The position numbers were made by a program, and so were the translations under genes. Below are positions 18,717 to 43,180 of a DNA stretch of 46,832 bases, piece after piece (position 1 is the stretch's first letter; the number at the start of each line of letters is the position of its first letter). Under the pieces are notes generated by a model. The model saw nothing but the letters and a program-made list of their open reading frames with translations. It was not told where the DNA came from and did not search any database. The stretch is from Candidatus Staskawiczbacteria bacterium (GTDB taxonomy: Bacteria > Patescibacteriota > Minisyncoccia > Minisyncoccales > Staskawiczbacteraceae), in contig CAIYRH010000009.1 in assembly GCA_903928565.1 (NCBI GenBank), positions 1-46,832 of the forward strand. The letters run 5' to 3'.

Positions 18717-18750
18717 AAAAAAAGAGCCCGGCGACAAGTCGCAAGGCCTC
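18717..18750 (-). terminator. Terminator of ORFan islet D
   Basis: Minus strand GAGGCCTTGCGAC-TT-GTCGCCGGGCTC-T7. Confidence 0.65.
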
Positions 18751-19033
18751 AACTAAGCTTCCTGAGAATACAGGTGACGCAATCCACTAATGGAACTTCG
18801 GCATCTTCATCTGCGAGATCATCATCAAATAATGGGACGGGCATTGTTGACACTTCCGTGCCAACAGAAATTATTTCCGCATAACCGGAATTATTGTGTC
18901 CGCACTCCCACATAATATGGTCTCCAACCAATGGATTCCAATCTACTGGAAACTGACTCTCAACCGCCTGTCTACGGTCTAGGCACCGCATCGTATCCGG
19001 CGTTATGTCCCAGATGACATTTATAATAGGCAT
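18749..19033 (-). CDS. Hypothetical protein (94 aa)
   Basis: Start at ATG 19033 after CTAACCGAAAGGAA. A longer start would overlap the upstream gene. Confidence 0.7.
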   Translation of the reverse strand: MPIINVIWDITPDTMRCLDRRQAVESQFPVDWNPLVGDHIMWECGHNNSGYAEIISVGTEVSTMPVPLFDDDLADEDAEVPLVDCVTCILRKLS

Positions 19034-19061
19034 GGCTGTATTCCTTTCGGTTAGTGCGCTA

Positions 19062-19343
19062 TTAGAGATTATAAGCAGTTCCGCCCAATTCACGGAACAT
19101 TCGTTTAATGGGCATCGGTGGTTTCATGCCACCAGAATGAGCAACCATATAATAAGAACCATCGGGCAGCATGAGCCTAAGCTGAATGCCGTTGCAAAGC
19201 ATTTCTACTTCTTCGGCCGAAACTCGAGACGAATCCTGAACAAAAATTCTACCACCCCTATTTTCGATTTCGATGGTCGGTATGTTGCGCGGTCCCAAAT
19301 GGCCCCCTAATTCAACTAATTCCGCGATAGTTTTTATTGCCAT
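19062..19343 (-). CDS. Hypothetical protein (93 aa)
   Basis: Start at ATG 19343 after CTAACCGAGGGAAG, downstream of the promoter. Confidence 0.7.
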   Translation of the reverse strand: MAIKTIAELVELGGHLGPRNIPTIEIENRGGRIFVQDSSRVSAEEVEMLCNGIQLRLMLPDGSYYMVAHSGGMKPPMPIKRMFRELGGTAYNL

Positions 19344-19411
19344 AATTTTCTTCCCTCGGTTAGATAATTTCAAAGGTCTGATTTTGGGTGGCACCGTGCC
19401 ACGTTGTTTAT

Positions 19412-19440
19412 ACATTACCGCAAACCGCATTTTCTGTCAA
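19412..19440 (-). promoter_or_regulatory. sigma70 promoter of islet D
   Basis: TTGACA-17-TAATGT, 3 nt after the groEL terminator T tract. Confidence 0.7.
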
Positions 19441-19443
19441 ACC

Positions 19444-19464
19444 AAAAAGAGGCTCTCGCCCCTT
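19444..19464 (-). terminator. groEL terminator
   Basis: AGGGGC-GAGA-GCCTCT-TTTT on the minus strand. Confidence 0.7.
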
Positions 19465-19465
19465 A

Positions 19466-42110: not shown

Positions 42111-42178
42111 TATTATAATTATTTACTATTAAATCATTATACCCTCTACAATATATTCGTTCAAGCCAAGTTTTACAC

Positions 42179-42209
42179 AAAAAAAGACCGCTGGATGAAC
42201 CAAGCGGTT
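42179..42209 (-). terminator. Terminator of islet F
   Basis: ACCGCT-10 nt-AGCGGT-C-T7 on the minus strand. Confidence 0.7.
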
Positions 42210-42224
42210 TAGACTGTCGCCCCC

Positions 42225-42506
42225 TTAAGGGCAATTTTGGAGAGCGATTGACTCGGACCTAGATACGGCATCGATGCAAGTCCTAAGGTCGAACCGATCA
42301 TTCATAGATGGCAAATCTTCTATTTCGTCCAGACGAATCACAGCAAAAGTGCCAGAACCAACTGGGCAAGAAAAACCTGTAGGGCTAGTTTCTGAGTTAA
42401 GCAAGCCCAACTTCCTAATGGCCCCTTCTACGGTCCTCACCGGCACAATGCCAAAAGGCACGTATGACTTGTCGGCAAGCTGGAGACTGGCGCGGATTTT
42501 CGTCAT
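42225..42506 (-). CDS. Hypothetical protein (93 aa)
   Basis: Start MTKIRAS. ATGA overlap with the upstream stop at 42503-42505. Confidence 0.65.
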   Translation of the reverse strand: MTKIRASLQLADKSYVPFGIVPVRTVEGAIRKLGLLNSETSPTGFSCPVGSGTFAVIRLDEIEDLPSMNDRFDLRTCIDAVSRSESIALQNCP

Positions 42507-42880
42507 TGGGGTTTTTTCCTTACTGCGGGTTGAGTTGGCGTTGATTGGCGCGGCGTTTGGCAAACCGGCTGGTCCATTTGAGCAACCGAAAGTTCGGCAG
42601 CCGCAATCTTATTGCGACAAATTTCTTCTGCCGAAAGTGGCGCTCCATATCGCCTCTCTAGCCTTTTCATAATTGCATTCAACGTAGCATCTAATGAAAC
42701 GCATCCATGTGTATGGCCGACAACAAGCCTTCTTGATGCCTCCCCAAACTGTGGCTTAGTAAGATTCGGCCACCTATCATGAGCATACTCATATATTGCG
42801 AGGACGCCGAACGATGCAAACAAATCGTCGGATGATTTTTTTGGCTTTGGCTTCTTCTTCGGTTGCTTTTTGGCACTCAT
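42503..42880 (-). CDS. Hypothetical protein with Lys-rich N-terminus (125 aa)
   Basis: Start MSAKKQ. ATGA overlap with the upstream stop at 42877-42879. Confidence 0.65.
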   Translation of the reverse strand: MSAKKQPKKKPKPKKSSDDLFASFGVLAIYEYAHDRWPNLTKPQFGEASRRLVVGHTHGCVSLDATLNAIMKRLERRYGAPLSAEEICRNKIAAAELSVAQMDQPVCQTPRQSTPTQPAVRKKPQ

Positions 42881-43101
42881 GGTGTTACGGTCCACCTGTT
42901 CGTGGTTGTTTCAGAATGGTTACTCTTGCGTAAGTTAACGACAACTGCGCCAATAATAAGACCAATCACAACTTTGGCGCCAGTCTTGAAAATAACACTA
43001 TTGTCGTAAATCAAACCATACGTAACGGCCACAAGTCCTCCAATTAACAAAAAAGCCAGCGTAACTATGGCTATTCTTTTGCCCGAATTCCTTCTTTTCA
43101 T
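42877..43101 (-). CDS. Small 2-TM membrane protein (74 aa)
   Basis: Start MKRRNSGK downstream of the promoter, after a CA-rich leader. Confidence 0.7.
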   Translation of the reverse strand: MKRRNSGKRIAIVTLAFLLIGGLVAVTYGLIYDNSVIFKTGAKVVIGLIIGAVVVNLRKSNHSETTTNRWTVTP

Positions 43102-43151
43102 AATGGTGTGGTGAATTCTGTGTGGGGTAAAAATTGACAACGAACATAAAT

Positions 43152-43180
43152 ATTTTAGCATTTAAAATTTCTATTGTCAA
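43152..43180 (-). promoter_or_regulatory. sigma70 promoter of islet F
   Basis: TTGACA-17-TAAAAT. Confidence 0.75.

Follow-up and report, generated by a model that had tools for sequence, protein, structure and literature searches.

Small self-contained gene islets between core transcription units of a Staskawiczbacteria genome as a probable local sample of a flexible gene pool

Integrative islands carry a tyrosine integrase, target the 3' end of a gene (a tRNA, a tmRNA or the attB of a protein gene) and restore this end. Another type of accessory unit, the phage moron, is reportedly an autonomous transcription unit inserted between conserved phage genes, as Hendrix and colleagues are said to have described. 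In cellular genomes, hotspots of horizontal gene transfer (HGT) are located between core genes, and many of them lack recognizable mobile elements (Oliveira et al., 2017, PMC5635113). Hypervariable regions or islets are also found in streamlined free-living bacteria such as SAR11 and Prochlorococcus (PMC3448164). Here, we focus on six small islets (A to F) in a 46,832-nucleotide (nt) stretch of DNA from Candidatus Staskawiczbacteria bacterium (assembly GCA_903928565.1, contig CAIYRH010000009.1), which belongs to the Paceibacteria in the Candidate Phyla Radiation (CPR). This stretch, hereafter the window, is contig C9 of a 718-kb genome in 18 contigs (G000; mean GC content 0.37), and its backbone genes include typA, bacA, tuf, groES/EL, uvrA, ftsK and rpoC.

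The original prediction listed, besides a triplet (B), islets A (74-988), C (5570-7086), D (18717-19440), E (21660-22187) and F (42179-43180), each delivered as a complete expression unit with a promoter, one to three open reading frames (ORFs) and a terminator. This layout is confirmed by the sequence, with A, B (2930-5172) and C on the plus strand and D, E and F on the minus strand. We consider it probable, though not certain, that the islets are a local sample of a genome-wide flexible gene pool that uses the gaps between core transcription units as slots. The closest counterparts of the phenomenon are HGT hotspots free of mobile genetic elements and autonomous units of the moron type, which in this case reside in the chromosome of a CPR bacterium. 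As in the hotspots, variable genes with rapid turnover are confined to set intervals of a syntenic core, integrases and transposases are missing, the same core genes bound differing accessory content in relatives, and recombination in the flanking core genes could plausibly exchange the content. In contrast to the hotspots, the intervals are far more numerous for the size of the genome (104 of 452 between two species of one genus) and tiny (usually 1-3 genes), and one class of cargo is richer in GC at third codon positions (GC3) than the host and has its own promoter and leader signals. The islets resemble morons in their organization of promoter, ORF(s) and terminator, in a composition unlike that of their flanks, in their presence or absence between collinear genomes and in their position exactly between genes. 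Unlike morons, they reside in a cellular chromosome, are flanked by groEL, uvrA, rpoC, ftsK and typA, and come without phage genes or homologs. The islets of SAR11 and Prochlorococcus share the small syntenic genome and the strain- or species-specific genes at recurrent sites, many of them hypothetical or envelope-related. However, those islets are few, span tens of kb and tend to be AT-skewed or host-like in composition, whereas many islets of 0.5-2.5 kb are found here and a subset of them is persistently GC-rich.

The groEL region was compared across 30 relatives and longer syntenic stretches across nine contigs from eight species of the same genus. The two closest species are G003 and G005, and the contig of G005 is near-complete. 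Homologs were searched for in 78 other genomes of the family and in 400 other genomes sampled across the order; among the ORFs E1, F1 and A2, only E1 was also searched for in an index of 5.8 billion proteins. Relative to the G005 contig, 104 of 452 syntenic core-gene junctions contain a variable gap of at least 400 nt, and hence the ten variable gaps of the window are typical. The GC content of the variable gaps ranges from 0.25 to 0.53. Co-directional flanks are found at 77% of the variable slots compared to 83% of all junctions, which is no enrichment, and the longest slot ORF is co-oriented with the flanks in 54 of 73 cases. All islet ORFs are as unrecognizable as predicted, with no match in Pfam, PHROG, PADLOC or NCBIfam. 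Rfam matches are absent from the islets, and a search of the own genome finds no paralogs of islet ORFs elsewhere. The noted absence of integrases, transposases and att repeats likewise holds for the islets and slots of this genome: no integrase or transposase is located in or near any islet, no element-encoded recombinase is found, and PF00589 gives one match in the whole genome, to Xer on contig C15, which is therefore the sole tyrosine recombinase.

Which islets are old and which are new can be read from the occupancy of the slots. The proposed synteny comparison indeed reveals empty sites. The interval between groEL and the adjacent zinc-ribbon gene (znr) spans 843 nt here and 51-64 nt in G016, G013 and G008, and the uvrA-groES interval, 619 nt long in this genome, ranges from 72 to 240 nt in G008, G015 and G005. 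Between typA and a gene for an 87-amino acid (aa) protein (g87), the distance is 2,377 nt here, 1,589 nt in G005, 878 nt in G003, 41 nt in G006 and 60 nt in G016; between g87 and bacA, it is 1,989 nt here, 90 nt in G005 and 44 nt in G003, both of which lack islet C. Finally, the ftsK-rpoC interval measures 1,136 nt here and 858 nt in G005, where it contains homologs of F2 and F3. Backbone proteins are 70-97% identical to those of G005 and G003; islet proteins are either absent from these species or 22-46% identical. Islets B, D, F and the A1 gene occupy the same slots in the clade of G000, G003 and G005, and their promoters, leaders and terminators are conserved. Hence, they are fast-diverging residents, and synteny shows them to be inherited from the common ancestor of the three species, so that the recent origin implied for most islets by the original prediction is not supported. 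Islets C and E are found in this species only, and their sites measure 44-240 nt in relatives. By this comparison, the C and E slots are shown to have been filled recently and in this species alone. The original prediction also held that conservation at the same positions across the lineage combined with backbone-like codon usage would argue against insertion; shared positions are found within the clade for B, D, F and A1, and backbone-like codon usage in none of these species.

Islet D, between groEL and znr, illustrates the inherited type. The 3' flank of groEL (19447-19495, minus strand) contains four copies of the heptamer ATTGAAA (plus-strand notation, 19465-19495) followed by an intrinsic terminator (19464-19447), and the islet promoter and 5' leader (19388-19440, minus strand) start just past this terminator, as predicted. 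The -35 element TTGACA (19440-19435) is separated by a 17-nt spacer from the -10 element (19417-19412), which is TAATGT and not TATAAA as first read, and which is retained in relatives. The leader forms a hairpin (GTGGCA-CGG-TGCCAC, 19402-19388), followed by the box CAGACCTTTGAAAT and the site GAGGGAAG, which resembles a Shine-Dalgarno (SD) sequence. SD-like sites precede both D1 (93 aa, 19062-19343, minus strand), which has no family match, and D2 (94 aa, 18749-19033, minus strand), a member of an uncharacterized family of small proteins. The islet ends with a hairpin and T-run terminator (18712-18745, minus strand), which is conserved in the metagenome contig L134 and directly precedes the znr promoter. 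D1, F1, F2 and F3 begin at internal ATG codons and are therefore shorter than the maximal ORFs.

The content of the D slot can be followed across species. A D1 homolog (35.5% identity) occupies the groEL-znr slot of another species of the genus (metagenome contigs L134-L137), where the D1 homolog, an extra gene and a D2 homolog (37%) lie between groEL and znr. D2 homologs with 35-44% identity are found in the same slot in G003, G005, L133 and L134. The promoter-leader module is kept in G003, G005 and L134 with TTGACA, a 17-nt spacer, TAAT(G/C)T, the hairpin and the box CAGACCTTTGAAAT, and the hairpin shows one compensatory change (G:C to A:T) in G003. In further species, the groEL-znr interval varies from 412 to more than 1,800 nt and is filled by unrelated small ORFs. 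In the GroEL tree, G000, G005 and G003 form a clade (support 91/97) and the empty D sites fall outside of it. Judged from these alignments and the tree, the D slot is old. A profile search assigns about 49 clusters of 70-100 aa proteins to the D2 family, and none of the 33 members examined has a Pfam match. The AlphaFold2 (AF2) model of D2 has a predicted local distance difference test score (pLDDT) of 81, and its best match in the PDB is the ASCH protein 3iuw (E=0.03, template modeling (TM) score 0.53-0.66, a weak match). Beside this fold match, the sequence profiles give no Pfam match to the ASCH family PF04266. The predicted fold weakly resembles an ASCH/PUA-like RNA-binding barrel, and on the basis of this model D2 may bind RNA. 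Heptamer arrays such as the one behind groEL (ATTGAAA, TAGTTTG and similar) are found at 19465-19495, 34838-34869, 37723-37753, 43219-43250 and 17465-17496. They start at or after the stop codons of core genes (groEL, rpoC and others) and are not specific to islets.

Islet F follows the rpoC terminator (43217-43190) at a short distance, as predicted. Its promoter (43180-43152; terminator, promoter and leader together 43102-43217, minus strand) is TTGACA-17-TAAAAT with a TG element and matches 11 of 12 consensus positions, and its leader is C/A-rich and unstructured. The three genes, all on the minus strand, are joined through ATGA overlaps. F1 (74 aa, 42877-43101) is a predicted membrane protein for which no homolog was found, F2 (125 aa, 42503-42880) has a lysine-rich N-terminus and a 38% identical homolog in the ftsK-rpoC slot of G005, and F3 (93 aa, 42225-42506) has a homolog of 43-46% identity adjoining the F2 homolog in G005. 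The islet terminator (42179-42208, minus strand) consists of a 6-bp stem, a 10-nt loop and T7, and is followed by the ftsK promoter. Because its loop exceeds 8 nt, it was missed by the automated terminator scan and was read from the sequence.

Islet B, in the typA-g87 slot, combines conserved flanks with diverged coding parts in its three tandem units on the plus strand (B1 3025-3633, B2 3803-4381 and B3 4530-5117). Promoters, leaders and terminators of the units are near-identical: among the paralogs, promoters and leaders are 80-94% and terminators 95% identical, and they are clearly retained in G005 and G003 as well. The B1-B3 proteins are 26-29% identical to each other, and B proteins including those of other species are 22-42% identical despite the conserved flanks. 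The gene copy number is three here, two in G005, one in G003 and zero in G006 and G016. This better preservation of promoter, leader and terminator compared to the proteins (in islet B, and in D across species) is shared with the tandem erp/UHB paralogs of Borrelia. In contrast to these, the gene families are unrelated, and most islets are single-copy and dispersed instead of forming plasmid-borne arrays. Islet A (plus strand) has a promoter with TTGACG at 74 and a leader hairpin (z=-3.0), followed by A1 (157-447), a basic protein of 96 aa, and A2 (459-794). An A1 homolog of 42-45% identity lies upstream of typA in G003.

Islet E represents the newly filled type. Its promoter and leader (22110-22187, minus strand) begin with a -35 TTGACA (22187-22182) located 2 nt past the uvrA stop codon, as predicted. 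The leader has no significant structure, and the SD-like site GAAGGAAAAG lies ahead of the ATG of E1 (133 aa, 21708-22109, minus strand). E1 is a strict orphan: no homologs other than identical copies are found in the 78 family genomes, the 400 order genomes or the index of 5.8 billion proteins. Its coding score of 0.147 per codon is inside the range of core genes, and 8 independent metagenome contigs carry an identical E1 between the same neighbors. Empty alleles were not found in the population; every contig with the exact groES or E1 protein carries E1. The islet ends with a terminator (21685-21660) and a copy of a 20-nt genome-wide repeat (21658-21638), which abuts the groES -35 element (21637-21632; the entire region is 21638-21685, minus strand). 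The TTGACA of the E promoter stands where relatives place the groES -35, and a second TTGACA, behind the islet and preceded by the repeat copy, now serves groES. The repeat, YCCTGAGCGRAGTCGAAGGR, is present in about 21 copies in the genome, and its copies in the window are located at 3689-3708, 21638-21658 and 27745-27764. Several copies of YCCTGAGCGRAGTCGAAGGR sit exactly between a terminator T-run and a -35 TTGACA, namely before B2, groES, the B unit of G005 and the D unit of G003, and further copies lie in frame within genes.

Islet C (plus strand) has a B-like promoter and leader followed by C1 (5652-6464, 270 aa), C2 (6528-7037, 169 aa) and a terminator. Of 401 genomes of the order, 9 carry C2; they belong to 9 genera, and the flanks of C2 differ in each of them; it was found only in CPR genomes, and the suggested search of IMG/VR, carried out for C2, gives no relative. 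In G032, C2 lies between orthologs of C10:20415-20903 and C10:21736-23157, and in G072 between two genes that adjoin in G000. Most C2 loci have their own TTGAC(A/T) promoter, a AGTTCTTT leader, a strong SD and a terminator, and C2 is richer in GC than its flanks by 0.06-0.13 in 8 of 12 loci. A C1 homolog (55% identity) is located downstream of gatCA. C2 and C1 thus reside in different slots in other genera, and therefore such units relocate. The C2 model has a pLDDT of 83 and a predicted TM score (pTM) of 0.79, and neither the PDB nor viral folds provide a match. Another ORF with the motif WDGKWRIVIFDIPE, similar to the PaaX C-terminal domain (PaaX_C) or Cas2, is found in slots D and E in G014 and in slot F in G018. 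These PaaX_C/Cas2-like ORFs (180-206 aa; groEL-znr and groES-uvrA slots on L006 of G014, ftsK-rpoC slot of G018) share the motif WDGKWR(I/M)V(I/A)FDIPE...GF...Q.S(V/L)(W/F)..PY. The promoter and leader of the unrelated C1 gene share 61% identity across a 74-nt stretch with their counterparts in the B paralogs (compared stretches 2930-3003, 3709-3782, 4441-4514 and 5570-5643). A GACAG-T-run-GACAA motif and a CCAAC tract are common to B1-B3 and C1, and the motif occurs nowhere else in the genome.

The islet ORFs appeared more GC-rich than the backbone by eye, and calculation agrees. Islet coding sequences have a GC content of 0.41-0.49 and a GC3 of 0.36-0.55, compared to a backbone GC content of 0.36 and a GC3 of 0.313 in 504 core genes. 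Since GC3 is raised relative to core genes, the enrichment lies mostly at synonymous sites. Across the genome, the slot cargo splits into an AT-rich, host-like class and a GC-rich class (47 genes, GC3 0.488). This distinct GC3-rich class occupies roughly one in three slots. For 14 of the 47 genes, the same slot of G005 contains a homolog (median identity 37%), and 30 have none. The orthologous islets of G005 have a GC3 of 0.37-0.48 in a genome with a GC content of 0.34 and a backbone GC3 of 0.19-0.22. As they stay GC3-rich above a more AT-rich backbone, the islet composition has not ameliorated. Proteins of the GC-rich class show an excess of Cys, Trp and Pro and a deficit of Lys, Ile and Glu.

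The GC-rich class also differs in its expression signals and has sigma-70 promoters close to the consensus. Promoter scores of at least 10.5 are reached by 32% of the GC-rich slot genes, whereas the share is 12% in the core and 7% among AT-rich slot genes. Of the GC-rich slot genes, 53% have a strong SD or a CCAAC-rich leader, versus 6% in the core (Fisher p=1.3e-13); in these leader signals, the AT-rich slot genes resemble the core. In the window, SD-like sites precede D1, D2, E1, C2 and F3, unstructured C/A-rich leaders precede B1-B3, C1 and F1, and a stable leader hairpin is present only in D and A. A structured 5' leader is therefore not a feature of the class, the leaders of B, C, E and F being unstructured. 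No leader motif is common to all islets either, as GACAG-T-run-GACAA is limited to B1-B3 and C1, and homologous promoter spacers are shared only among the B paralogs. Structured RNA as an explanation of the GC-rich spacers was likewise rejected, given the lack of Rfam matches and the protein-level homologs of several ORFs. Core-gene leaders are A/T-rich and lack an SD. The G000 assembly does not contain a 16S gene, and the anti-SD was read in G005 instead. There, the 16S rRNA ends with GGAUCAUUUUUUU without CCUCC, and no CCTCC is found within 700 nt downstream of this end. The tail of this 16S rRNA is U-rich and might pair with the A-rich leaders. The corresponding end of the gene reads ...GGAAGCTGGTCGTGGATCATTTTTTT (L081:7700-7865, which equals G005:C1 about 247,700-247,865, minus strand). 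Loss of the anti-SD has been reported for part of the Parcubacteria (PMC9297842), and the G005 16S rRNA agrees with this. A persistently GC3-rich gene class with its own promoter and leader signals in a lineage lacking the anti-SD appears to be undescribed.

Three variable slots of the window that were not listed before were also found. One (25126-27120, minus strand) is located where uvrA and a plus-strand gene at 27200 diverge and contains a 664-aa ORF equipped with a promoter and a terminator of its own, and this site is empty in G005 (95 nt) and G006 (102 nt). The ORF has a backbone-like GC3 of 0.325 and a weak match to Big_7 (bacterial Ig). Its product is rich in Thr, Ser and Gly and contains an internal 300-nt repeat (25645-25944 and 26251-26550, 86% identical); judged from its sequence, it is probably a surface protein. 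A similar 658-aa repeat protein occupies the ftsK-rpoC slot of G015. The second slot (38963-39523, minus strand), between ftsK and the gene at 37787-38848, holds a 186-aa ORF with a backbone-like GC3 of 0.27 and a weak resemblance to PsbP (E=6e-5, which misses the Pfam cut-off); the equivalent slot of G005 holds an unrelated 214-aa ORF. The third is located at 7129-7521.

How the islets reach their positions is the point at which the explanations diverge. According to the original prediction, a recurring insertion route targets operon 3' ends. Such a dedicated route would deliver promoter-ORF-terminator cassettes to gene 3' ends or terminators, possibly as a Campbell-type or site-specific circular cassette that carries a copy of the target 3' end. 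C2 and C1 occupy different slots across genera and in each case come with a promoter, leader, SD and terminator of their own, which fits this route, as does the start of E at the groES -35 position of relatives with a second TTGACA behind the insert. Moreover, two relatives carry an insert bracketed by duplicates of the upstream 3' end with an ancestral-looking downstream copy, as expected for integrative islands that target 3' ends. In G032, a 689-nt cassette (promoter, C2 homolog, terminator) is enclosed by a 52-nt direct repeat (L032:1284-1335 and 2025-2076, 47 of 52 positions identical), which consists of the last codons of the upstream gene and its terminator hairpin; the loops of the two hairpins differ (GAAG versus TTCG). 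In G005, a 165-nt non-coding insert after uvrA is enclosed by a 27-nt duplicate of the uvrA 3' end (L002:3690-3716 and 3835-3861, about 20 of 27 positions identical). Either copy codes for ..YTG(R/K)YL followed by a stop codon, and the displaced copy, which the groES promoter directly follows, resembles the genuine uvrA end of G000. The placement of the E and groES -35 elements together with these duplications provides leads for a Campbell-type route, no proof. Against a dedicated route, a left-versus-right alignment of the boundaries of the 104 slots yields two above the 99th percentile of the controls, as expected by chance (diverged repeats shorter than about 25 nt would escape), and no direct repeats are found around D, E, F, B and C. 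Unlike integrative islands, the islets have no integrase nearby and the window islets no such duplication, and the inserts are far smaller. Integration of the Xer/dif type was rejected because the dif-arm 12-mer is neither enriched nor located at junctions, Xer being the only tyrosine recombinase. The islets differ from integron cassettes as well: an IntI-type integrase next to attI is missing, each islet has a sigma-70-like promoter, and the 3' hairpins are, instead of attC palindromes, ordinary T-run terminators without shared sequence except among the B paralogs. Since paralogs are lacking outside the window, a multi-copy mobile element was rejected, and an insertion sequence (IS) element or miniature inverted-repeat transposable element (MITE) is contradicted by the lack of both paralogs and flanking repeats. 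Furthermore, the 664-aa islet is placed between diverging promoters, co-directional junctions hold no excess of slots, and most window islets are inherited rather than newly inserted. The contact between terminator and -35, described for the islets, is general in this genome: a -35 directly follows a terminator also at the ordinary genes znr, uvrA and ftsK, and at empty sites of relatives the terminator of the gene upstream meets or overlaps the next -35 (which in G013 is part of the terminator loop). Because the two abut at empty sites, any tolerated insertion that spares both units must land at the terminator-promoter junction. A dedicated insertion machine or targeting of operon 3' ends is thus not supported and, in our estimate, unlikely; of the recurring insertion that was proposed, the relocation of C2 and C1 cargo is supported and the targeted route is not.

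Other explanations concern the nature of the cargo. E1, F1, A2 and possibly D1 could be non-functional, either as young de novo ORFs or as decaying remnants in expanded intergenic DNA with chance signals. In line with this, E1, F1 and A2 lack homologs in the genomes searched, coding scores are low under host codon usage, and the uvrA-groES insert of G005 is non-coding. However, the sibling ORFs D1, D2, F2, F3, A1, B, C1 and C2 have homologs at the protein level, the models of D2 and C2 fold confidently, and F1 is tied to F2 by the ATGA overlap. E1 itself combines an SD-like site and an ATG with a frame of 133 codons, a core-range score and eight identical independent assemblies. Non-functional ORFs are, in our estimate, very unlikely. 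To interpret the islets as relics of phages or plasmids, i.e., strict-sense morons left after decay of the element, is extremely unlikely. Autonomous promoters and terminators and the deviant composition are as in morons, and F1 and F2 have weak PHROG matches (E about 0.004-0.005); yet 50,697 phage records give no tblastn match, C2 has neither an IMG/VR relative nor a viral fold match, and no phage or plasmid genes lie nearby, the core-gene flanks being contiguous with empty spacers of only 44-100 nt. A role in toxin-antitoxin systems or anti-phage defense was rejected for lack of PADLOC, Pfam and NCBIfam matches.

In the reading of the islets as samples of a flexible gene pool, slots in a streamlined and highly syntenic genome would carry small, independently transcribed accessory genes. 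Cargo would be gained, lost and swapped through recombination without an element-encoded recombinase: exchange within a slot might proceed by homologous recombination in the flanking core genes, and moves to new slots by illegitimate, microhomology-based or Campbell-type recombination. Selection would then retain only insertions exactly between a terminator and the next promoter and co-oriented with the flanks, and the selected landing point would therefore create the appearance of docking behind housekeeping genes. In view of their evolutionary pattern, the cargo proteins probably diversify rapidly and act where the cell meets its host or phages.

Several observations weigh against this reading. 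Polymorphic empty and filled alleles were not found within one population, and recombination is a proposed mechanism rather than an observed one. That inherited islets stay GC3-rich is explained neither by simple vertical inheritance nor by one-off HGT with later amelioration. Comparative evidence of protein coding is lacking for E1, F1 and A2 in the 78 family and 400 order genomes, and no search returned a function for any cargo protein. Moreover, the alignments at the duplicated 3' ends in G032 and G005 give hints of what may be a more specific integration route. A bolder proposal, which we regard as decidedly unlikely, is a circulating Paceibacteria pool of small, self-expressing GC3-rich cassettes. 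These would carry a portable module, a consensus sigma-70 promoter with an SD-like or an unstructured CCAAC-type leader, for ribosomes without anti-SD. They would enter by Campbell-type recombination at gene 3' ends or terminator-promoter junctions without a cassette recombinase, leaving a duplicated 3' end, and their GC content would be kept by continual exchange, GC-biased gene conversion or selection for expression. If true, such cassettes would constitute a type of mobile gene unit and expression system that has not been described before.

The small genomes of CPR/Patescibacteria consist largely of unknown genes, and their route to new functions is poorly understood. In the genome studied here, nearly a quarter of the core-gene junctions are accessory slots. 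The two duplications of upstream-gene 3' ends provide a testable lead to the insertion mechanism, and the conserved flanks around hyper-diverged coding parts in B and D resemble contingency or arms-race loci. The GC-rich class offers a handle on how ribosomes without an anti-SD choose start sites for different gene classes, and on how episymbiotic ultra-small bacteria diversify proteins that probably face the host or phages.

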